From a virus (taxonomy: Duplodnaviria > Heunggongvirae > Uroviricota > Caudoviricetes), in the IMG/VR virus record IMGVR_UViG_2531839529_000011: a stretch of 14,431 nucleotides of DNA, one strand, 5' to 3'. The notes beneath the pieces were generated by a model, which saw only the letters and a list, made by a program, of their open reading frames with translations, had not been told where the DNA came from and searched no databases. This document shows positions 1,009-12,704 of the stretch, one piece after another. Each line of letters begins with the position of its first letter. Positions within the stretch are counted from its first letter, which is position 1. A program made the translations under genes and the position numbers.

Positions 1009-1083
1009 GTCCTCTTAGTTAAATGGATATAACGAGCCCCTCCTAAGGGCTAATTGCAGGTTCGATTCCTGCAGGGGACACTT
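1009..1083 (+). tRNA. argW: tRNA-Arg (anticodon CCU)
   Basis: Cloverleaf readable by eye: acceptor GTCCTCT pairs with AGGGGAC, anticodon loop CT-CCT-AA, T-arm GGTTCGATTCC, discriminator A at 1080. Matches E. coli argW as I recall it. The 3' CCA is not encoded (gene reads ACACTTT), consistent with the island junction at the tRNA 3' end. Confidence 0.85.
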
Positions 1084-2573: not shown

Positions 2574-2867
2574 ATGCAGCATTCAACAGAGAATGAAACT
2601 ATATTCTTAGGAAATCTATGGATTGACAAAAAAATACCACCATTAGAATATTGTTCATTTGAACGCGCTTCAAGACTATTAGAATGCGAGATTGATGATT
2701 TATTACACCTATACGAAATAGGCGCTTTTAATATCGCATTCAAGGCGGATGGACTTGCAGTTAGATTTAATGTTAATTTCCTCAATAAAAATCAGAAAGT
2801 GGAAATTGACTTAATTCATCCCGTATTAACTAATCAATCACTAGAGATGGAATTTTCAACAATATAG
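2574..2867 (+). CDS. Hypothetical protein, N-terminal segment of an AT-rich cargo gene (ends at in-frame TAG)
   Basis: ATG 2574 preceded by SD agagg; about 33% GC. Terminates at TAG 2865-2867; the same frame stays open from 2868 into the next ORF. Confidence 0.5.
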   Translation: MQHSTENETIFLGNLWIDKKIPPLEYCSFERASRLLECEIDDLLHLYEIGAFNIAFKADGLAVRFNVNFLNKNQKVEIDLIHPVLTNQSLEMEFSTI

Positions 2868-2954
2868 TATGACCTTAAAGATGATTCCTTTGAACATTTT
2901 GAAAATGGGCTTCAAATTATAGGATTTGCCTGTGGTATTTGGTACGCCGATGAT

Positions 2955-3455
2955 ATGATAAGTGACATAAAAAATGGATTAGCTATAGATCCAGATTATG
3001 AATTCAGGCTTAAACCGGTAAAAATACGAGATAATGTTTTGATGGCAACGGCCTCATATGAAGGAAATAAGGTCATTGATATTCCATTTGAAGATCTTCT
3101 TATCATGCGAAGAGATTTAGAGTTAATATGGAAATCAGTAAAAACTGGAATTCCTATGCCAAGTTTACTTACGAAAAGAATTTCATCTGAACCTAAAATC
3201 CCCAAGCGATTAAATAACACTGCTGAGCATCATGCAAAAAATAGGGAGGGGTTATTAAATGCAGCCATATATATATTAGCAAAATACCCAAGCGAATGTC
3301 GTGGTGAAAGAAAAGAGATAAGTCCTGAAAAGTGGACTAACGCCATAATTAAACATTTAGGAGAGCTACCTCCAATATTTATCACTAATGAACAAGAAAT
3401 CTTAAGAAAATTACGATTAGCGGTTAATCATGCGGGATTAAAACAAAAGGGGTAG
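2955..3455 (+). CDS. Hypothetical protein, C-terminal segment of the same AT-rich cargo gene (positional analogue of the gene between int and alpA in CP4-57-type islands)
   Basis: 166-aa ORF in the same frame as 2574-2867 with no stop between 2868 and 2954. Low GC. No family recognised. Confidence 0.5.
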   Translation: MISDIKNGLAIDPDYEFRLKPVKIRDNVLMATASYEGNKVIDIPFEDLLIMRRDLELIWKSVKTGIPMPSLLTKRISSEPKIPKRLNNTAEHHAKNREGLLNAAIYILAKYPSECRGERKEISPEKWTNAIIKHLGELPPIFITNEQEILRKLRLAVNHAGLKQKG

Positions 3456-3521
3456 ACTGAAACAATCTACAGGTAGAGTTGATTACACTACCTTCACAGC
3501 ATTTTGATATCCCCATAGTAT

Positions 3522-3549
3522 CTGCCGTGTTCATTACATAACACGGCAG
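3522..3549 (+). promoter_or_regulatory. Perfect 10-bp inverted repeat (CTGCCGTGTT / AACACGGCAG) with 8-nt loop CATTACAT, just upstream of the alpA start
   Basis: Read directly. It overlaps the expected alpA promoter/RBS region and may also terminate the upstream cargo gene. Confidence 0.4.
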
Positions 3550-3557
3550 GTAATTTC

Positions 3558-3773
3558 ATGACATTAAAAACTTATCCTATCACTGGACATGCCCGCCCAC
3601 GAGCTACTGCTGACTTTTTGCAAATAAGTACGGTTACTCTCTGGCGCTGGGAAAAGAACAATCCTGAATTTCCCAAATCTATACGCATTTCAAAACGGGT
3701 ATCTGTTTACGATGCACAAGAAATTAGGCAGTGGGTTAAAGCTCAATCAGCAGGATTGGAGGAAGTAGTGTAA
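3558..3773 (+). CDS. alpA: AlpA-family phage regulatory protein (MerR-like HTH; excision/int regulator)
   Basis: 71-aa ORF with the motif LQISTVTLWRWEKNNPEFPKSIRISKRVSVYDAQEIRQWV, typical of AlpA prophage regulators, in the canonical position downstream of a P4-type int. Confidence 0.85.
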   Translation: MTLKTYPITGHARPRATADFLQISTVTLWRWEKNNPEFPKSIRISKRVSVYDAQEIRQWVKAQSAGLEEVV

Positions 3774-3791
3774 TGACAATATTAACAAAGC

Positions 3792-3813
3792 TGGGGAGAA
3801 AAAAGCCTCCCCA
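3792..3813 (-). terminator. Putative intrinsic terminator for the minus-strand RHH gene
   Basis: Stem TGGGGAG / CTCCCCA with an 8-nt loop; on the minus strand it is followed by a T-rich tract (TTTGTTAAT). Lies between the alpA stop and the RHH gene stop. Confidence 0.35.
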
Positions 3814-3822
3814 ACGTATTAA

Positions 3823-4017
3823 TCAATTCTTTGGTTCTAAACCTCGGCTTTGTAACTCTTTGCGTAGAATGCGCTTGATCCAAGCCGCTAGCGATTCATC
3901 GCCATCCTGCTGTTGTGCTTGTTCCATCAGTTCACGCAGTTCAGGGTCAAGTCGGAACTGGAATGGCGGATTCCCACGTCTTTCATTTTTGTGTGTTGAC
4001 ACGTCAATTACACCCAT
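3823..4017 (-). CDS. Small ribbon-helix-helix (Arc/CopG-like) DNA-binding protein, probable island repressor
   Basis: 64-aa ORF. PPFQFRLDPELRELMEQAQQ...ESLAAWIKRILRKEL fits a beta-strand / helix A / helix B RHH layout. Divergent from the replication operon with a palindromic operator over its own promoter. No strong SD. Confidence 0.55.
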   Translation of the reverse strand: MGVIDVSTHKNERRGNPPFQFRLDPELRELMEQAQQQDGDESLAAWIKRILRKELQSRGLEPKN

Positions 4018-4070
4018 TGTAATGTATTTATGTGTAATGACACATTACACACAGAAAAACAAAATAGCAA
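3996..4070. promoter_or_regulatory. Divergent, overlapping sigma70 promoters with a 9-bp perfect palindrome operator
   Basis: Plus strand: -35 TTGACA 3996-4001, -10 TAATGT 4020-4025 (18-bp spacer), reading toward icd/primase. Minus strand: -35 TTGCTA (rc of 4065-4070), 17-bp spacer, -10 TAATGT (rc of 4042-4047), reading into the RHH gene. Palindrome TGTGTAATG-aca-CATTACACA at 4031-4051 sits at both start sites; second dyad ATTACA...TGTAAT at 4007-4024. Confidence 0.5.
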
Positions 4071-4133
4071 CGCCCCGGAGTGTTTGCAGCAGCACCGAGG
4101 CGTCTGACCAGCACGTTATATGAGGTAACGAAG

Positions 4134-4310
4134 ATGGCTAAACAGAAGTGTACCTGGTTATTTGCGGCGATCAACCGCAGTCAACGTAATGCCCGTCCGG
4201 TGATGTTAAGGATCACCGCAGATAACGAACGATCAGCGCGGCGCAGACTTGCCCCGGACTATGTACTGAGCTTTGCCGGGCGCATTCCCTGCGGAGGTGA
4301 ACATGCGTAA
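4134..4310 (+). CDS. Icd-like host cell-division inhibitor (small P4-family early protein)
   Basis: ATG 4134 with SD tgaggt; 58 aa MAKQKCTWLFAAINRSQRNARPVMLRITADNERSARRRLAPDYVLSFAGRIPCGGEHA. The LRITADNERSARR.LAPDY.LSFAGRIP motif matches Icd-like proteins of P4-like prophages as I recall them. The ORF track extends to a GTG at 4080. Confidence 0.55.
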   Translation: MAKQKCTWLFAAINRSQRNARPVMLRITADNERSARRRLAPDYVLSFAGRIPCGGEHA

Positions 4311-4662
4311 TTATCCGCACCCCGGCGAACGCTGGCAGCATGAACGTGGCTGGACGGTCACGATTATCCGATTAATAGAAGCCTCGCCCTCTGTGGCGCT
4401 GGTTAATCCTGAATTCAGCTGTGAAGTGCTGATACGTCATGACAGCGACAACCAGCTATCTTCCTGCCCTCTGGCATGGTTTGAACAGCGGTATACGCGC
4501 CTGTTTGATGTACCGCTCTTTAAGCCTGCACCAGCTCCTGCAGGCGGTAGTGGTTCCGGCCCGCTGACACTGCATCCGTCTGTGCTATTTATCCGCTGGC
4601 GGGAGCGTAGCATATGGCGTTCTGCTGAGCCTGACGACGGTCACTATTCAAAGTTTCTCTGA
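4303..4662 (+). CDS. Hypothetical protein (primase-operon small ORF 1)
   Basis: ATG 4303 preceded by strong SD GGAGGTG (4293-4299); overlaps the icd-like stop by 8 nt. Backbone-type GC. Confidence 0.55.
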   Translation: MRNYPHPGERWQHERGWTVTIIRLIEASPSVALVNPEFSCEVLIRHDSDNQLSSCPLAWFEQRYTRLFDVPLFKPAPAPAGGSGSGPLTLHPSVLFIRWRERSIWRSAEPDDGHYSKFL

Positions 4663-4693
4663 CAAAATACCGCTGAAAACGGAGTAATCCACG

Positions 4694-4978
4694 ATGAATA
4701 TTTCAAACGGGCACAACGGTGCTCAGGGCCACACTTTGCCTGAAAAACACAATACCGGTGCTTTTGCCTATGGGTTGTCAGAGGACAGTTTCGGAAAGCT
4801 GACCCGCGCAAAAAATGCCTGCGACATGCTCCAGCTTCTCTTTTCTGAATACCCGTCTCAGGCCGGAGCACTGGACGCTGGCTGTGCGCATGGTGTCGCC
4901 GCGCTGATGGAGTACCTGCTGGCAGATTTGACGGATATTGCACACAGCTGCGCACTGATTGAAGGAGGTGCCAGATGA
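4694..4978 (+). CDS. Hypothetical protein (primase-operon small ORF 2)
   Basis: ATG 4694 with SD ggag; 94 aa; stop overlaps the next start (ATGA at 4975-4978). Confidence 0.55.
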   Translation: MNISNGHNGAQGHTLPEKHNTGAFAYGLSEDSFGKLTRAKNACDMLQLLFSEYPSQAGALDAGCAHGVAALMEYLLADLTDIAHSCALIEGGAR

Positions 4979-5358
4979 ACCAGCCGCAGGTTTCCATTTT
5001 CCCGGCAGAAATGACCACCGCGCTTTACCGGCGGGCTATTGCTTCAGCATGGCGGCAGAAAATGCTGAACGAAACTGGTAGTGATCAGTATGGTCCGCAC
5101 AGCCTGACGGTGGAGCGTATTGAAATGGCCATTGCGCTGCATATCGAGTGCGTACTGATTAACGAGTACGGCGAAGTGCAGGGCGCCGCTGCCGCGCTGG
5201 CACTGCTGACTGACATGCTGGAGCCATCACTGCTGACCGCGCCGCCGGTACTGACCGCGCGCGGCTGTGAAGTGATGGCGGAGATGTACCGCACGCTTCC
5301 GGCGGCCTTTGATGACTTCTGCAGTACCGGTGTGACGTTGTATGAGGGGGAAGTATGA
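4975..5358 (+). CDS. Hypothetical protein (primase-operon small ORF 3)
   Basis: ATG 4975 with SD GGAGGTG; 127 aa; stop TGA 5356-5358 overlaps ATG 5355 (ATGA coupling to the primase's original start). Confidence 0.55.
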   Translation: MNQPQVSIFPAEMTTALYRRAIASAWRQKMLNETGSDQYGPHSLTVERIEMAIALHIECVLINEYGEVQGAAAALALLTDMLEPSLLTAPPVLTARGCEVMAEMYRTLPAAFDDFCSTGVTLYEGEV

Positions 5359-5420
5359 CAATACAGACGGTTACGCAGATTTCAGCCGCCGCACGGGGGA
5401 AATAGCCCGTTATTCTGCAG

Positions 5421-8027
5421 ATGCTGCGTATTGATGTACCTGAAAACGGCAGGCACGGCCCCTGCCCGAAATGTGGGGGCAAGGATCGTTTTCGCCTTGA
5501 TGACCTTGACGGGCGCGGGACGTGGATCTGCAGCCAGTGTGGCAATGGTGACGGTCTGGATCTGGTTAAGCTCGTAACCGGTTACAGCGTCAGAAAGGCT
5601 GCGCAGGAGGTGGCGCAGGTGCTTAATGTGCCGGATGTGCAGGAACTGCCTGTTAAGCCTGCCAGACAAAAAGCCCCTAAACGCGACATGGGTCTTACCG
5701 TGGCGGCGCTGATGAAAGAGAGCCACACGGGAGAAAGCGCCTATCTGACAGGAAAAGGGTTCGCCGGATACCCGGCCTCTCTGACCGGAAGCGTGCAGCA
5801 TATCAGCGGTAAGGATTTTCCTGCCGGTTCCCTGCTGTTACCACTCACGACCAACACCGGAGCCGTGACCGGTGCACAGCTTATCGCCCCGACGGGTGAA
5901 AAAAGCATACTGCCCGGCAGCACGATGAAAGGCGCGTTTGTGTCGCTCAGCCCGTTACCGTCTGAACCACCGGTACAGGTGGTGATTACCGAAGGTTACG
6001 CTACGGCGCTGACGGTAAGCCAGCTCACTGCCGGATGCGTAGTGGCTGCCATATCTGCGGGCAACCTGCCCAATGTGGCGCAGTCGCTGCGGGCACGCTG
6101 GCCTGAGGTAAAAATTATCATCGCCGGTGATAACGATTTTCAGGACGGGGGGGAGAATCCCGGCAGAGCCTTTGCTGAACGGGCGGCAAAAGCTGTTGGC
6201 GGCTGGATGACGCTGCCACCAGGAGAGATTAAGGCTGACTGGAATGACTTTCATCGGGAGCACGGTATTACCCGTGCCCGTGAAGCCTTTCGCAACGGTC
6301 TGGTACTGTGCGGGGAAGGCCGCACGCAACTGCCGCACGGGTTCCGTCTTACCCAGGAATATCTCTGGTATGAAAAGCAGGTACAGCGCAACGGTGAGAC
6401 GGAGATCCAGAACGTCAAAATATGCAGCCCGCTGCGCGTGACGGCAATCACCTGCGATGCCGATGGCGGTAACTTCGGACGACTGCTGGAATGGGAAGAT
6501 ACGTGGGGTGAGTGTCGCCGCTGGGCGATGCCGATGGAAATGCTGAGCGGCAGTGGTGAGGAACTGCGCCGGGTACTGCTGGTTAACGGGCTGTCTTATA
6601 TCAGCACCACCGGTGAGGCACGCGCACGCCTGATGGAATATATCTCACTGTGTAAACCGGAACGCCGCGTGACCTGCGTCAGTCGTACTGGCTGGCATGG
6701 TCAGGTTTACGTCCTGCAGGATGAGGTCAGCGGTGAAGGTGCAGAGGGTGTCATTCTCCAGACCACTTCCGTGCAGGGGCGTGATTTCCGCGTGTCGGGC
6801 ACAACAGAGGAATGGCGGGAGCATGTATCCCGCTACTGTACCGGCAACTCCCGCGTGGCATTTGCTGTCAGCCTGGCCTTTGCTGCACCACTGTTACGGC
6901 TGGTTGGTATGGACGGCGGCGGCTACCACCTAAAAGGGGAATCGACAGACGGTAAGACCACCACCATGAAAGCGGCAACCTCCGTCTGCGGCGGGCCTGA
7001 CTACTGGCAGACATGGCGGGCCACCGGCAACGCGCTGGAGGGATGCGCCAGCCGCCGCAACGATGCCGCCATGATGCTTGATGAGATCCGGGAAGTTGAC
7101 GGACGCGAGGCAGGCAATATCGCCTACATGCTGGCAAACGGTCAGGGCAAGGGCCGTGCCGGTACGGACGGTGAGCTGCGTACCCGTAAGCAGTGGCGCC
7201 TGTTGTTCTTTTCAACTGGCGAGTTGTCTCTGACCGAACATGCGGCAAAGGCCGGTGAGCGTACTTTTGCCGGGATGGAAGTCAGGATGATCCAGATCCC
7301 AAGCGATTCCGGGAAGTTTGGCGTTTTTGAGGAGCTGCACGGCTTCGACAGCGGCAAGGCTCTGGCAGAGCATCTTGAATGGGCCACGTCCTGCTACTAC
7401 GGTTCGCCGTTCCGGGAGTGGCTGAAAGCACTGACCGCTGATCTTAACGGACTAACGGCACAGGCAAAATCGCTGATGAAGGAATATGCTGCCGCCCTGA
7501 CTCCTAAAGATGCAGGCAATCAGGTGGGCCGGGCTGTGAACCGCTTTGCACTGGTGGCGATGGCAGGTGAACTGGCAACCCGTCTGGGTATCACCGGCTG
7601 GCCTGAGGGTGAAGCACTGCGGGCAACCCGCGTCTGCCTGAACGCATGGCTGAAAGATCGCGGGCACACCGCCAATCAGGAAGATATCGCCGCACTGGAG
7701 CAGGTTCGCAGTTTCTTTACCGCGAATCAGTACAGCCGCTTTGCAGACTGGTATGACGAGCGCAACCGCCCCGGCAATATGGTGGGCTGGCGCAGGGTGG
7801 AGAAAGGCAGTACCGCGCAGGGCACGGAAGCTGTCACTACGTTCTATGTCATGCCGTCCGGCTGGAAAGAAATCTGCAGGGGATTTGACCCGCGTAAGGT
7901 GGCGCGTCTGTGCGCAGATCGTGGATACCTGCTGCCCTCCACTGATGGCAAACTCCAGACAACCATTCGCCCGCCAGAGATGAATCCCCGCAGGCTCTAT
8001 GTCTTCAACAGCGAGGTGCCGGGTTAA
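5421..8027 (+). CDS. P4 alpha-type primase-helicase (zinc-binding primase N-terminus, TOPRIM, D5-like helicase with Walker A, C-terminal iteron-binding region); original N-terminus interrupted by in-frame TAG
   Basis: 868-aa ORF. CPKCGGKDRF...WICSQCGNGDG zinc ribbon; TOPRIM residues VITEGYATAL and IIAGDNDFQDGG; Walker A GESTDGKTT. An ATG at 5355 with strong SD GAGGGGG, coupled to the upstream stop, opens the same frame (MTIQTVTQISAAARGK) but hits TAG at 5403-5405; translation presumably restarts at ATG 5421. Confidence 0.9.
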   Translation: MLRIDVPENGRHGPCPKCGGKDRFRLDDLDGRGTWICSQCGNGDGLDLVKLVTGYSVRKAAQEVAQVLNVPDVQELPVKPARQKAPKRDMGLTVAALMKESHTGESAYLTGKGFAGYPASLTGSVQHISGKDFPAGSLLLPLTTNTGAVTGAQLIAPTGEKSILPGSTMKGAFVSLSPLPSEPPVQVVITEGYATALTVSQLTAGCVVAAISAGNLPNVAQSLRARWPEVKIIIAGDNDFQDGGENPGRAFAERAAKAVGGWMTLPPGEIKADWNDFHREHGITRAREAFRNGLVLCGEGRTQLPHGFRLTQEYLWYEKQVQRNGETEIQNVKICSPLRVTAITCDADGGNFGRLLEWEDTWGECRRWAMPMEMLSGSGEELRRVLLVNGLSYISTTGEARARLMEYISLCKPERRVTCVSRTGWHGQVYVLQDEVSGEGAEGVILQTTSVQGRDFRVSGTTEEWREHVSRYCTGNSRVAFAVSLAFAAPLLRLVGMDGGGYHLKGESTDGKTTTMKAATSVCGGPDYWQTWRATGNALEGCASRRNDAAMMLDEIREVDGREAGNIAYMLANGQGKGRAGTDGELRTRKQWRLLFFSTGELSLTEHAAKAGERTFAGMEVRMIQIPSDSGKFGVFEELHGFDSGKALAEHLEWATSCYYGSPFREWLKALTADLNGLTAQAKSLMKEYAAALTPKDAGNQVGRAVNRFALVAMAGELATRLGITGWPEGEALRATRVCLNAWLKDRGHTANQEDIAALEQVRSFFTANQYSRFADWYDERNRPGNMVGWRRVEKGSTAQGTEAVTTFYVMPSGWKEICRGFDPRKVARLCADRGYLLPSTDGKLQTTIRPPEMNPRRLYVFNSEVPG

Positions 8028-8393: not shown

Positions 8394-8427
8394 ATTGACG
8401 TAACGAACCAACCCGACAGGAGAAGTC

Positions 8428-9171
8428 ATGAACAACACCGCAGTGAATAACAACCTTTCCACTTTTCCGGCTGTAACGCAGCGGGCACTGGAAACCATGA
8501 ACACAGCCAGAAACGCATGGCTTGAAGCACGTCGTCAGCAGAAAGCGGCAGCGGATAATATTGCGACAATCCGCCAGCGTCGCGCTGAAATGGAAGCCAC
8601 GACGAACACACTGAATGAGGAGTGGCGCACGCTGTTTCGTGAAAGTCAGGGCGTGGTCTCAAAGGAAATGAAAAAACTGCGCACGGAAATTGCGCTGGGA
8701 CGAGAAACGCTTGAGGATTTTGATGAGCTGCTGGCGGCTCAGGAAAGCGAAAATGCACTTTTGCCGCAGAAAGCTGCGGAATTAGCCGGAAAGTATATCC
8801 ACGCGCATAACATTCTTGTGGATATTCGCGCAAAACAAATCTGGGAAGATTTTATGCAGTCGCATGGAAAAGCGCTTATTCAGACGCTGAGCCTGCTTAA
8901 ATCCACAATGGGCCGGGAAGCCAGTGCCGTTGTGGGTGTGGTGAATTCAGTTAATGACCCGGACACAGTGCTGAAAGACTTTATTCATAAACATATCACC
9001 AGACCGGCTCTGGCTAACGATGCGATGCCTGAACAGGACCCGGTGTTTAAACTGGCGGGAGTTGCCCCGGATTATGCGGCGCGTCTGGATTTCAGTAATC
9101 AACTCTCTCCGGCAGCTATGCATAAAATAAAGGTTCGTCAGGAACTTGCTGAGAAGGAGAAAGCTGTATGA
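8428..9171 (+). CDS. sid: Sid/Psu-family late protein, most likely external scaffold / capsid-size determination protein Sid
   Basis: 247 aa (P4 Sid is about 244 aa), coiled-coil-rich, first gene behind the Delta-type late promoter. Shares the YI.(A/S)H ... DFMQ.HG.AL motif with Psu-family proteins. Stop overlaps the next start (ATGA 9168-9171). Confidence 0.55.
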   Translation: MNNTAVNNNLSTFPAVTQRALETMNTARNAWLEARRQQKAAADNIATIRQRRAEMEATTNTLNEEWRTLFRESQGVVSKEMKKLRTEIALGRETLEDFDELLAAQESENALLPQKAAELAGKYIHAHNILVDIRAKQIWEDFMQSHGKALIQTLSLLKSTMGREASAVVGVVNSVNDPDTVLKDFIHKHITRPALANDAMPEQDPVFKLAGVAPDYAARLDFSNQLSPAAMHKIKVRQELAEKEKAV

Positions 9172-9293
9172 CGGCCCGAGGCACACCTGACCAGGCACTT
9201 ACCAGTTTTCGGAATGCCCGTATTCTGTGGGCCGGACATAGTGAGACCCGAAAAGCCGTTGAACAACAGATAGCATCTCTCCTCGCTGCGTAA
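9168..9293 (+). pseudogene. psu: psu-like (polarity suppression protein) N-terminal fragment, truncated by the IS66-family insertion
   Basis: ATG 9168 with strong SD aaggag, translationally coupled to sid. Reading frame runs to the IS boundary at 9290 and stops at TAA 9291-9293 inside the IS terminal repeat. Confidence 0.55.
9282..9289. repeat. Left copy of the 8-bp target-site duplication CTCGCTGC flanking the IS66-family element
   Basis: Identical octamer immediately outside both IS ends. Confidence 0.8.
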
Positions 9294-9342
9294 CCGGCTC
9301 ATTTAAACCGTCTGGTCTGTTTCCTCCGGCTCTACAAAAATA

Positions 9343-10020
9343 ATGTCCATCATTTTTAATGGACACTATCGTATGAAACACCGGACCTGGATCACTGAAG
9401 CTTTACGTCTTCACTTTGAAGAACATTTACCCCGGGTTGTGGCCGGGCGTCGCCTGGGTGTACCAAAATCAACAGTTTGTAGTATGTTCGTGCGCTTTCG
9501 GAGAGCTGGCCTTTCGTGGCCTTTGCCCGCAGGCATGTCGGAGCAGGAACTTGATGCCTGCCTTTACGGACAATTTTCCACGGTACCAGTCGTACGTCCT
9601 GAAAGCACCGTTATATCCGAAGCCCCCGTGGTAAAAAAACGTCCCCGGCGGCCCAACTTCCCTTATGAGTTTAAAATCGCCTTAGTGGAGCAGTCACTGC
9701 AGCCCGGAGCCTGTGTGGCGCAGATCGCCCGGGAAAACGGAATCAACGATAACCTGCTCTTCAACTGGCGCCATCAATACCGGAAAGGTGGCCTGCTGCC
9801 TTCCGGAAAAAATATGCCGGCACTGCTTCCCGTGACGTTAACGCCGGAGCCGGATAATAAAATCCCGGCCCCCGCACAGGAACCAGAGCAGATAAATACA
9901 CCGTCCGACAGTCTGTGTTGTGAGCTGGTTCTGCCGGCCGGAACTCTCAGGCTTAAAGGTAAACTGACGCCGGCGTTATTACAGACACTTATCCGCGAAA
10001 TAAAAGGGAGCAGCCACTGA
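9343..10020 (+). CDS. tnpA: IS66-family accessory protein TnpA (orfA; HTH)
   Basis: 225-aa ORF; RRPNFPYEFKIALVEQSLQPGACVAQIARENGINDNLLFNWRHQYRKG is a transposase-type HTH. Start uncertain (ATG 9343 or 9373; neither has a strong SD). Stop TGA overlaps the tnpB start. Confidence 0.7.
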   Translation: MSIIFNGHYRMKHRTWITEALRLHFEEHLPRVVAGRRLGVPKSTVCSMFVRFRRAGLSWPLPAGMSEQELDACLYGQFSTVPVVRPESTVISEAPVVKKRPRRPNFPYEFKIALVEQSLQPGACVAQIARENGINDNLLFNWRHQYRKGGLLPSGKNMPALLPVTLTPEPDNKIPAPAQEPEQINTPSDSLCCELVLPAGTLRLKGKLTPALLQTLIREIKGSSH

Positions 10021-10367
10021 TGATATCTCTCCCTGCAGGTTCGCGTATCTGGCTGGTTGCAGGTATCACCGATATGCGAAATGGCTTTAACGGCCTGGCA
10101 TCAAAAGTTCAGAACGTCCTGAAGGATGACCCGTTCTCCGGACACCTGTTCATCTTCCGCGGACGCCGGGGTGACCAGATAAAAGTGTTGTGGGCTGACA
10201 GTGACGGACTGTGCCTCTTCACCAAACGCCTGGAGCGGGGCCGCTTCGTCTGGCCAGTCACCCGTGACGGCAAGGTGCACCTTACTCCGGCTCAGTTATC
10301 CATGCTTCTTGAAGGTATCAACTGGAAGCACCCGAAACGAACGGAACGCGCTGGAATCCGCATATAA
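10020..10367 (+). CDS. tnpB: IS66-family TnpB (orfB)
   Basis: 115 aa MISLPAGSRIWLVAGITDMRNGFNGLA... recognised as the conserved IS66 orfB product; start overlaps the orfA stop (TGATG). Confidence 0.85.
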   Translation: MISLPAGSRIWLVAGITDMRNGFNGLASKVQNVLKDDPFSGHLFIFRGRRGDQIKVLWADSDGLCLFTKRLERGRFVWPVTRDGKVHLTPAQLSMLLEGINWKHPKRTERAGIRI

Positions 10368-10386
10368 CCCGTTGTAAAGTGAGGAT

Positions 10387-11958
10387 ATGGACACCTCACT
10401 TGCTCATGAGAACGCCCGCCTGCGGGCACTGTTGCAGACGCAACAGGACACCATCCGCCAGATGGCTGAATACAACCGCCTGCTCTCACAGCGGGTGGCG
10501 GCTTATGCTTCCGAAATCAACCGGCTGAAGGCGCTGGTTGCGAAACTGCAACGTATGCAGTTCGGTAAAAGCTCAGAAAAACTTCGTGCAAAAACCGAAC
10601 GGCAGATACAGGAAGCACAGGAGCGAATCAGCGCACTTCAGGAAGAAATGGCGGAAACGCTGGGTGAGCAATATGACCCGGTACTGCCATCCGCCCTGCG
10701 CCAGTCTTCAGCCCGTAAACCGTTACCGGCCTCACTTCCCCGTGAAACCCGGGTTATCCGGCCGGAAGAGGAATGCTGTCCTGCCTGTGGTGGTGAACTC
10801 AGTTCTCTGGGATGTGATGTGTCAGAGCAACTGGAGCTTATCAGCAGCGCCTTTAAGGTTATCGAAACACAACGTCCGAAACAGGCCTGTTGCCGGTGCG
10901 ACCATATCGTGCAGGCACCAGTACCTTCAAAACCCATTGCACGCAGTTATGCCGGAGCGGGGCTTCTGGCCCATGTTGTCACCGGGAAATATGCAGACCA
11001 TCTGCCGTTATACCGCCAGTCAGAAATATACCGTCGTCAGGGAGTGGAGCTGAGCCGTGCCACACTGGGGCGCTGGACAGGTGCTGTTGCTGAACTGCTG
11101 GAGCCGCTGTATGACGTCCTGCGCCAGTATGTGCTGATGCCCGGTAAAGTCCATGCTGATGATATCCCCGTCCTGGTCCAGGAGCCGGGCAGCGGTAAAA
11201 CCCGGACAGCCCGGCTGTGGGTCTACGTCCGTGATGACCGTAACGCCGGTTCACAGATGCCCCCGGCGGTCTGGTTCGCGTACAGTCCGGACCGGAAAGG
11301 TATCCATCCACAAAATCACCTGGCCGGTTACAGCGGTGTGCTTCAGGCCGATGCTTACGGTGGTTACCGGGCGTTATACGAATCCGGCAGAATAACGGAA
11401 GCCGCGTGTATGGCTCATGCCCGGAGAAAAATCCACGATGTGCATGCAAGAGCGCCCACCTACATCACCACGGAAGCCCTGCAGCGTATCGGTGAACTGT
11501 ATGCCATCGAGGCAGAGGTCCGGGGCTGTTCAGCAGAACAGCGTCTGGCGGCAAGAAAAGCCAGAGCCGCGCCACTGATGCAGTCACTGTATGACTGGAT
11601 ACAGCAACAGATGAAAACACTGTCGCGTCACTCAGATACGGCAAAAGCGTTCGCATACCTGCTGAAACAGTGGGATGCACTGAACGTGTACTGCAGTAAT
11701 GGCTGGGTGGAAATCGACAACAACATCGCAGAGAACGCCTTACGGGGAGTGGCCGTAGGCCGGAAAAACTGGATGTTCGCGGGTTCCGACAGCGGTGGTG
11801 AACATGCGGCGGTGTTGTACTCGCTGATCGGCACATGCCGTCTGAACAATGTGGAGCCAGAAAAGTGGCTGCGTTACGTCATTGAACATATCCAGGATTG
11901 GCCGGCAAACCGGGTACGCGATCTGTTGCCCTGGAAAGTTGATCTGAGCTCTCAGTAA
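10387..11958 (+). CDS. tnpC: IS66-family transposase TnpC (orfC)
   Basis: 523 aa with N-terminal leucine-zipper-like coiled coil, CPACGG...CCRC zinc-finger region and the IS66 DDE core. Recognised IS66 transposase family. Confidence 0.9.
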
Positions 11959-11988
11959 ATATCAATACGGTTCTGACGAGTCGCTTAC

Positions 11989-11996
11989 CTCGCTGC
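11989..11996. repeat. Right copy of the 8-bp target-site duplication CTCGCTGC
   Basis: Identical to 9282-9289, immediately after the right IS end (...CGCTTAC at 11988). Confidence 0.8.
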
Positions 11997-12426
11997 CACA
12001 GAAAAACCAACAGATTATGCCCGACAGCTCGAATTACTGCGGGAACGTCTGGATGTGCTGAAATGGCAAATTAACTGTGCTGCTCGCGAATGCATTTACT
12101 CGCAGCATTTATTGATGGAGGCCTGCACTGAAGCTGCTCTCAGCAATTTTATGCAGGCGAATGGGGCAGCCCTGACATCTGCACTGGCTCCGTTCCTGAA
12201 GGGGCGCGGAGGGGTTGACGTTGCGTCCCGTATATTACGCAGTGCTCTGGTTCGCCAGCTGGCAATAACACCGCCTGAAATTGCCGGGGATTATCGTGAG
12301 ATCCTGGATGAATCCGGTTTGATGCCAGACCCCGGGATGATTCGTGATTGCCAGGGCTCTTACACCCCGGCACAACATCTGCGTTTTCAGCAACGCCTGA
12401 ATGACATTAACGATATACAGGAGTGA
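11997..12426 (+). pseudogene. psu: psu-like C-terminal fragment (in frame with 9168-9289 once the IS and one TSD copy are removed)
   Basis: Frame is open from 11998 to TGA 12424-12426; the ORF track finds it from GTG 12055. The joined product is about 183 aa (P4 Psu is about 190 aa) and carries VLKWQINCAAR...FMQANGAALTSALAPFL, matching the Psu signature as I recall it. Confidence 0.55.
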
Positions 12427-12431
12427 TATTA

Positions 12432-12704
12432 ATGGCACTTAAATGTCCGGAATGCGGTACAGTTGCACACGCCAGAACAGCAGCCTATGAAGCTCCGTCA
12501 GTTAAACGCTCGTGGTATCAGTGCCAGAATCTGGAATGTTCCTGCACATTTACGGCACTGGAGAGTGTGGATAAGATAATCATGAAACCCCGGCGCAATG
12601 AACAGGAACCAGACAAATCACAACCCCCGGTAAAACAACAGCAAACGCTCAATCGCTATGGCTCCGCGTCAAAACTGTCAAGCCGTCAGCAGATTCCTGT
12701 CTGA
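12432..12704 (+). CDS. Ogr/Delta-family zinc-finger late transcription activator
   Basis: MALKCPECGTVAHARTAAYEAPSVKRSWYQCQNLECSCTFTALESV has the Ogr/Delta C-x2-C...C-x4-C signature. ATG 12432 with SD caggag; the ORF track extends to a GTG at 12423. Confidence 0.8.
   Translation: MALKCPECGTVAHARTAAYEAPSVKRSWYQCQNLECSCTFTALESVDKIIMKPRRNEQEPDKSQPPVKQQQTLNRYGSASKLSSRQQIPV

Follow-up and report, generated by a model that had tools for sequence, protein, structure and literature searches.

Described switches and the satellite locus

The textbook satellite is P4, whose RNA-based immunity commonly serves as the model of the entire group, and the helper of P4-type satellites is P2. In the Staphylococcus aureus pathogenicity islands (SaPI), Stl is a satellite-encoded repressor lying opposite to the excision/replication operon, and the Stl repressors are large helix-turn-helix proteins relieved by helper-phage proteins. 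In the annotation of P2, the −35 element of Pe overlaps the start codon of C, the operators O1 and O2 flank the −10 element, and Pc faces Pe. Among ribbon-helix-helix (RHH) proteins, Arc represses the overlapping Pant and Pmnt promoters of P22 immI, and CopG of pMV158 is autoregulated through a pseudo-symmetric element of 4-bp inverted boxes overlapping the promoter of the replication gene (PMC2724298). Here, a window of 14,431 nucleotides was analysed, that is, the whole stretch of DNA in the IMG/VR virus record IMGVR_UViG_2531839529_000011, which contains a P4-like satellite integrated beside a tRNA gene. Ahead of its icd-like/primase operon, a small RHH-like gene and a duplicated DNA box lie at two predicted head-on promoters, and together they probably form an autoregulated switch.

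The locus occupies the same position as the immunity region of P4 (CI/C4 RNA from the PLE transcript, RF01695; a1b1, RF03163; isrK, RF01394), between vis/alpA and an icd-like open reading frame (ORF) followed by DUF5375 and primase genes, and its presumed task is also the same, to keep the replication operon off in the prophage. In P4 this is achieved by RNA-directed premature termination, whereas the control predicted here is that of a protein over transcription initiation. The likeness to P22 immI lies in a putative operator placed where two overlapping opposite promoters meet, where one bound protein affects both (PMC2724298), in a small Arc-like RHH protein and in polymerase competition between the promoters. 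On the other hand, the window cassette has one RHH gene and P22 two, its operon carries icd-like and primase genes where P22 has the antirepressor, its protein has no detectable sequence-family membership, and its candidate operator is duplicated 41 bp apart. With Pe/Pc of P2 (and 186), the locus would share a lytic −35 element over the repressor start codon, repeated operators flanking the lytic −10 element and overlapping transcript 5′ ends, as far as predicted. In P2, however, the −10 hexamers are about 50 bp apart (16 bp here), C is not an RHH protein, and the first gene of Pe is that of the second regulator Cox, the place of which is taken here by an icd-like gene; a Cox/Apl-type second regulator was not identified in the window operon, the ORFs following the icd-like gene giving no matches to DNA-binding families. 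CopG resembles the window protein in being an RHH protein of roughly 45-60 aa with a box element on the promoter of a replication gene, but copG and repB form one transcription unit with a single promoter, whereas here the presumed repressor gene is divergent and the predicted promoters are face to face. Finally, as with Stl, a satellite-encoded protein repressor would be transcribed opposite to the operon thought to be held off, although no antirepressor or inducing signal is predicted for the window cassette.

Conserved boxes at two predicted head-on promoters

A sequence-only reading of the window had proposed two dyads as the basis of the switch, and both are seen in the sequence: a perfect 9-bp inverted repeat with a 3-nt spacer, TGTGTAATG (4031-4039) and CATTACACA (4043-4051), and a perfect 6-bp dyad, ATTACA (4007-4012) and TGTAAT (4018-4023). 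The window contains three different perfect inverted repeats with arms of 9 bp or more (loop ≤10), and at least one perfect 9-bp inverted repeat was present in 39% of the windows simulated with a first-order Markov model. Therefore, the 9-bp palindrome is not significant by itself and the case rests on the comparison with relatives. To this comparison, 102 database homologues of the small protein (identity 58-100%) contributed 44 loci from Enterobacterales and Orbaceae, and further E. coli relatives were added. Three rearranged loci and three with diverged operators were set aside, resulting in an alignment of 40 distinct intergenic regions over which conservation was measured as information content per column.

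Invariant or near-invariant blocks over these 40 regions were TGTGT 3990-3994, TTGACA 3996-4001, TAnTGT 4020-4025, TGTGT 4031-4035, AT 4037-4038, ACACATTAC 4040-4048, AAA 4062-4064 and CAA 4068-4070, with free variation of the bases between them; TGTGT 4031-4035 and ACACATTAC did not vary at all. Within the 9-bp palindrome, neither the outer arm bases 4049-4051, nor the outer three pairs, nor the 4036/4046 pair were conserved. The conserved symmetric core consisted of ATGTGT (4030-4035) and ACACAT (4040-4045) with the central A4037-T4038, kept in 36-40 of the 40 regions, and the right site of L049, a PICI-like island (phage-inducible chromosomal island), reads ATGTGTATATACACAT, a perfect 16-bp palindrome on the 4037/4038 centre in which the version first proposed is broken. 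The dyad taken for the operator does overlie both predicted start sites, but the conserved unit is a box of 13-16 bp that is present twice (Table 1). The second copy lies 41 bp leftward and is an 83% direct repeat of 4026-4043. In the window, TGTGTnnTKACAC occurs at 3990 and 4031 only, 0.37 matches being expected at one mismatch; across the 44 loci (~350 kb), GTGTnnT[GT]ACA was found at the right site in 42 and at the left site in 37, with one stray match and 39-41 bp between the two sites. On this comparison, the significant feature is the duplicated 13-mer box and not the 9-bp palindrome. The T(G/T)ACAC repeat also recurs at 11-bp spacing.

Moreover, the bases of the left box were near-invariant even at third positions of RHH codons 1-4, and they were equally kept where the start codon lies further downstream and the bases fall in the 5′ untranslated region, which argues for a constraint on the left box at the DNA level beyond the hexamer. 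Between the two boxes, the moderately conserved AATTACAC box was kept also in loci where it lies outside the RHH Shine-Dalgarno region. The second dyad overlaps the plus-strand −10 element, as had been pointed out, but it consists largely of the TAATGT hexamer plus this separate box. A third copy of the box core, GTGTAATGACA at 3768-3778, overlaps the alpA stop codon and is present in the intact relative L001, not in L002 or in other genera, being probably due to chance or lineage-specific. A single palindromic copy of the box inside the int gene of P4 was rejected for not being conserved.

The conservation pattern fits two sigma-70 promoters facing each other with nearly coincident predicted start sites, which is the simplest reading and the one previously put forward. 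In the plus-strand −10 hexamer, T4020, A4021, G4024 and T4025 were invariant, and the variants TAGTGT and TATGGT retain TAnnnT; in the RHH promoter, the length of the spacer was kept across loci and its sequence was variable. Furthermore, a promoter scan of relatives found these promoters at homologous positions: both were called in L046 (TTGACA-17-TACAGT toward icd and TTGTCA-17-TATGAT toward the RHH gene), and the operon promoter was called in L053, the Pasteurella phage Pmp8 (TTGACA-17-TATAGT), the hexamers of both loci being nearer to consensus than those of the window. Two other promoters called in the window by the scan, GTGTCA-16-TACAAT on the minus strand and ATGACA-17-CAAAAT on the plus strand, were rejected because their −10 elements (4016-4018; 4060-4061/4065) were not conserved.

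The small gene and its protein

Across the 102 homologues, the core RRGNPPFQF...GDESL..W.KR was invariant. Third codon positions varied at 50 of the 53 codons and second positions at only 15, from which the small gene is judged to be real and its frame to be under purifying selection. The ATG at 4017, which would give the 64 aa previously assigned to the product, is not conserved (ATA in L002), and most homologues have 59 aa and begin with MSTHK, equivalent in the window to GTG 4002, which is preceded by GGGTG; therefore, the gene stands as predicted, with a protein that is probably 59 aa long. In its AlphaFold model, two confident helices follow the PPFQFRL segment, and this succession of an N-terminal strand and two helices, characteristic of the RHH fold (Arc/MetJ/CopG), supports an RHH-like fold. 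The strand motif FQFRL also resembles the FNLRW of Arc.

Database searches with the protein gave little: no Pfam family matched, the best RHH match in a profile search of PDB was HP0222 (E 1.3), Foldseek returned no match in PDB for the model, and the YlcI/YnfO family (NCBIfam NF041551) scored 20.7 bits (E 3.2e-4), below its cut-off of 30 bits. RefSeq names for near-identical copies differ, being YlcI/YnfO on some and hypothetical on others. The gene is monocistronic, bounded by its own predicted promoter and a terminator-like hairpin, and thus it does not appear to be part of a toxin-antitoxin pair; no co-transcribed adjacent toxin gene was found, the next gene being the convergent alpA. A plus-strand ORF of 116 aa (3773-4123), antisense to the RHH gene, was rejected since it crosses the intergenic region with 1-nt indels in relatives and since selection acts in the RHH frame.

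Inheritance as a cassette with allele-specific repeats

BLAST matches to the window break at about 3826 and at about 4094-4146, which shows that the RHH gene and the boxes travel as a unit, as a cassette moving between unrelated elements (P4-like, PICI-like and plasmids). The alpA and primase types that accompany the cassette differ, and hundreds of E. coli genomes have the operon from about 4094 on behind another cassette. Among 5426 complete E. coli genomes, the window-type cassette was present in 245, the L003-type cassette in 401 and the P4-type C4 region in 2466. Moreover, the repeats differ between alleles. In L046/L047, where the protein reads KKSAPFQLRLE, CAwTATGATG occurs twice around a GTAC palindrome, and in the Pasteurella satellite Pmp8, with KRSPQYQMRLA and 56% identity, GGTAnnTACCAT occurs twice. 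Unrelated RHH genes in the same position are accompanied by GTGCGATTCA three times (L003 type) and by TACTGGAATCCAGT twice plus TGGATTCCA (second module of L049). This variation of the repeats with the RHH allele is the pattern expected of repressor/operator pairs and is taken as circumstantial evidence for them.

Several carriers of the cassette deserve mention. A query with the RHH cassette (3823-4075) matched 32 plasmid places in E. coli. E. coli plasmids such as p30EVA2-2 (L048, 3973-4300) carry the cassette together with the leader and the beginning of an ORF, unannotated and icd-like by eye; an IS3 element adjoins them, and a WYL (BrxR-like) gene and a BREX (bacteriophage exclusion) system lie downstream. 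The PICI-like island L049 has two tandem cassettes (3999-5060): the first is of the window type, its first gene truncated, and the second has a different RHH allele with TACTGGAATCCAGT palindromes and precedes an ash-type ORF (MRNHTTH...) from 5050, which has no RefSeq annotation, an annotated icd-like gene being at 5059. In L030 and L039, an apparent second RHH copy lies directly behind the switch. Pmp8 (15.3 kb) was deposited as a phage, and its gene content is that of a satellite (excisionase/regulator, RHH cassette and primase). Its switch and leader are arranged alike, with different operator palindromes, and the cassette thereby reaches Pasteurellaceae. In the full-text literature on P4-like/PICI satellites and YlcI/YnfO, no functional description of the cassette or the RHH regulator was found, the papers on Gram-negative PICI and P4-like elements mentioning Icd-like genes, C4/isrK RNAs and ‘YlcI/YnfO, prophage-associated protein’ as annotations only.

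Relation to the RNA immunity of P4

The gene order of P4 (icd-like ORF, epsilon, orf151, orf106 and alpha) parallels the window operon. In P4, the isrK/a1b1 targets and the C4/CI RNA lie between the early promoter and the icd-like ORF, and its C4 was recovered as a positive control with 74.9 bits. By contrast, an Rfam search of the whole window at gathering thresholds returned the tRNA only, with no C4, CI, a1b1 or isrK, and a search of 3700-4700 at E ≤ 10 gave chance-level matches (traJ_5, 21 bits vs. a cut-off of 50). As nhmmer was too insensitive for C4, it was replaced by a purpose-built covariance model, with which no C4 was found in the window. The possibility that the region encodes a CI/C4-like RNA, raised by the sequence-only reading against its own proposal, was thereby checked and found no match.

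With the covariance model, C4 was detected in only 3 of about 50 cassette-bearing loci searched (L042, L044 and L052). In these, the cassette and its leader precede an ash-family ORF with isrK/a1b1 targets, a full C4 RNA and then the icd-like gene (L052, 3473-4330; L042 and L044, about 3556-3649). Since they carry both, the cassette appears to be a separate layer, usually standing without C4, rather than a strict replacement of RNA immunity, and it would seem that protein and RNA control can be stacked in one element. The switch had been described as a control logic different from the RNA of P4, which agrees with the lack of C4/CI in the window but does not hold as a strict alternative. Overall, that interpretation was partly supported: largely right in outline, it erred in what it took for the operator unit, in the length of the protein and in having RNA immunity strictly replaced. 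As for the P4 ORF behind the CI/C4 RNA (L050, 8180-8365, minus strand), it resembles the window Icd-like protein by eye, and the E. coli copies matching the adjacent P4 C4 region (8400-8720) are annotated by RefSeq as ‘Icd-like protein’.

Proposed switch and competing explanations

The observations comprise the conserved sequences, the class of fold, an inheritance in the manner of a cassette and the lack of C4; from them, a scheme of binding, start sites, direction of regulation and induction may be inferred. The 59-aa RHH protein would bind the two boxes of 13-16 bp, (A/T)TGTGTnnT(G/T)ACAC, the centres of which are 41 bp apart (~four helical turns), and might in addition bind the AATTACAC box that lies in between. 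Occupancy of the left box would cover the −35 element of the operon promoter (TTGACA-18-TAATGT, start about 4032), and occupancy of the right box would cover both start sites and part of the −10 element of the RHH promoter (TTGCTA-17-TAATGT on the minus strand, start about 4035); because of these positions, the bound protein would silence the icd-like/primase operon and restrain its own production. Moreover, since both opposed promoters fit into 75 bp, only one of them at a time could be occupied by RNA polymerase, and firing of the stronger operon promoter would also suppress repressor synthesis, leading to switch-like behaviour. Since the plus strand of the hairpin at 3790-3815 has no T-run after the stem, read-through from alpA is possible, and induction might, speculatively, come from alpA transcription passing this one-sided terminator, antisense to the RHH gene, into the operon. 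We regard such an autoregulated repressor, acting on a face-to-face promoter switch, as the probable explanation, with appreciable room for doubt.

Several points weigh against it. Both −10 hexamers of the window have only 3 of the 6 consensus bases and neither promoter is called in the window by the scan, the symmetry of the left box is limited to GTGT/ACAC, and the conserved boxes overlap promoter elements, so that operator and promoter constraints are not cleanly separable. A competing explanation is that the conserved blocks are simply the two promoters plus a 5′-terminal RNA hairpin stabilising the icd transcript, the RHH protein acting elsewhere, on helper-phage DNA or on another protein. 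The invariant blocks do coincide with the predicted −35 and −10 hexamers, and the palindrome at 4031-4051 would fold into such a hairpin in the predicted icd transcript, its inner five pairs being mostly kept and A/G at 4036 allowing A-U or G-U. However, TGTGT 3990-3994 is invariant although no promoter hexamer covers it, and it is a repeat of the right box; truly compensatory changes are missing from the hairpin, which C at 4036 or an ATAT centre disrupts; different RHH strands come with different repeats at the same places; and no match to the box was found in the helper phage P2 on which the protein might act. Taken together, this makes the explanation unlikely.

That the boxes are operators of another protein (AlpA, helper Cox/Ogr or a host factor), with the RHH gene merely linked, is rather less probable still. 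In P4, promoters of the satellite are targets of the helper proteins Cox, Ogr and Delta, the annotation of P2 cox states that Cox activates a P4 promoter, and alpA always adjoins the cassette in L001-L003; nevertheless, the cassette boundaries take in the RHH gene and the boxes and not alpA, the cassette occurs with different alpA/primase types and on plasmids, and the box sequence shifts when the N-terminal arm and strand of the RHH protein shift. It is very improbable that the small protein is an RHH antitoxin-like partner neutralising the Icd-like division inhibitor by contact, with DNA binding being secondary: the gene is monocistronic, divergent from icd and ended by its own terminator, there is no C-terminal extension past the RHH core of the usual toxin-binding kind, and the cassette is also found ahead of ash-family genes instead of icd, even though several homologues are labelled ‘HicB family’ by JGI and Icd-like proteins are named as division inhibitors. 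Lastly, the palindromes might be taken for chance features of an AT-rich intergenic region, given how often perfect 9-bp repeats arose in the simulated windows; this is refuted by the near-invariance over the 40 loci from Enterobacterales and Orbaceae next to freely varying spacer bases, and can hardly be entertained. Beyond the window, exchangeable RHH-repressor/operator cassettes, each with its own repeats, may represent a protein-based immunity or specificity system heading the replication operon in many P4-like/PICI-like satellites of Enterobacterales, Orbaceae and Pasteurellaceae, a wider proposal that is plausible but held tentatively.

Organization of the locus and the leader RNA

The chromosome of E. 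coli strain 504838 matches the window at 100% identity over 3500-4700. The gene set typical of P4-like satellites was found in the window (int, AlpA, primase, Psu, the C-terminal part of Psu and Ogr/Delta, adjoining the tRNA gene), and the full set (int, alpA/vis, primase, sid/psu and delta) is present in the intact relative L001 (Table 1). The synteny alpA, RHH gene (minus strand), icd-like gene and primase is common to L001-L003, and the genes from icd-like to primase form a tight operon on the plus side, in line with what had been proposed. The psu gene is interrupted by an IS66-family element (~9300-12050; HTH_Tnp_1 ORF, TnpB_IS66 and DDE_Tnp_IS66), leaving an N-terminal stub at 9168-9293 and a C-terminal part at 12055-12426 that matches Psu positions 54-180, with the Ogr/Delta gene behind it at 12423-12704. 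The satellite copy in the window is probably defective. Furthermore, the hypothetical gene of 293 aa between int and alpA, intact in L001, appears in the window as two ORFs of the same frame (2574-2867 and 2955-3455), a sign of a premature stop codon. A perfect 10-bp inverted repeat at 3522-3549, CTGCCGTGTT-N8-AACACGGCAG, lies between a promoter-like TTCACA-17-TAGTAT (3493-3521) and the alpA start at 3558, and its 3′ arm reaches into what is probably the Shine-Dalgarno sequence of alpA. This repeat might control alpA, either as a hairpin or as an operator.

In the leader of the icd-like gene, two hairpins (HP1 and HP2) were found. For HP1, compensatory changes were observed in 10 of 11 pairs over 35 loci, with covariation above all 500 shuffles and slid controls, and HP2 (CGUUA/UAACG) covaries to CAUUA/UAAUG and CGAUA/UAUCG. 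Both are also present behind unrelated RHH cassettes and in the Pasteurella satellite, and the leader hairpins (4070-4133) matched no Rfam family. The leader may be a translational or stability control element of the icd-like gene.

Table 1. Features of the satellite locus in window coordinates (predicted elements are marked as such).
Feature	Position	Strand	Remarks
tRNA gene	1009-1080		Rfam search
Integrase	1209-2543		
Gene of unknown function	2574-3455		between integrase and alpA
alpA/vis-like regulator gene	3558-3773	+	Pfam Phage_AlpA, E 1.6e-07; upstream neighbour, convergent with RHH gene
Terminator-like hairpin	3790-3815	−	scan: 10-bp stem, then TTTGTT; end of single-gene RHH transcript
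RHH gene	3823-4002	−	probably 59 aa from GTG 4002
Left box (O_L) TTGTGTGTTGACACGT	3989-4004		core TGTGTGTTGACAC 3990-4002; overlaps plus-strand −35 and RHH start codon
Predicted −35 TTGACA, operon promoter	3996-4001	+	1.7-2.0 bits per position, 40 loci
AATTACAC box	4006-4013		in plus-promoter spacer; left arm of second dyad of sequence-only reading; 1.2-1.8 bits per position
Predicted −10 TAATGT, operon promoter	4020-4025	+	18 bp behind TTGACA; predicted start about 4031-4033
Right box (O_R) ATGTGTAATGACACAT	4030-4045		centre 4037/4038; over both predicted start sites and part of minus-strand −10
9-bp palindrome of sequence-only reading	4031-4051		centre 4041; perfect in only 3 of 40 homologous regions
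Predicted −10 TAATGT, RHH promoter	4042-4047	−	invariant in 40 loci; predicted start about 4034-4036
Predicted −35 TTGCTA, RHH promoter	4065-4070	−	17-bp spacer; CAA 4068-4070 invariant
Leader hairpin HP1	4070-4103	+	followed by conserved UCU(A/G)ACCA
Leader hairpin HP2	4114-4130	+	Shine-Dalgarno GAGG 4122-4125 in loop
icd-like gene	4134-4310	+	first of operon; NCBIfam phage_ICD_like, 84 bits vs. cut-off 25
Remainder of operon	4303-8027	+	two hypothetical genes, DUF5375 (P4 orf106 equivalent), TOPRIM/DUF927 primase ending at 8027
Distal genes			in order after primase: sid/psu-like gene, psu split by IS66 element, Ogr/Delta gene

Implications for satellite biology

The mechanism considered here has ample precedent in other RHH repressors of overlapping promoters, whereas for the widespread cassette itself the full-text literature search yielded no published description. 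From the comparisons above, a large subgroup of P4-like/PICI-like elements has, at the position of C4 in P4, a cassette for a small putative repressor protein, with operators that differ by allele. If this is true, the cassette would offer a testable handle on how satellites stay silent and get induced, and it would provide compact, mutually orthogonal repressor/operator pairs, together with a provisional role for a widespread family now named ‘hypothetical’ or ‘YlcI/YnfO’. Moreover, co-resident satellites would then fall into immunity groups defined by their repressors, like those of lambdoid phages.

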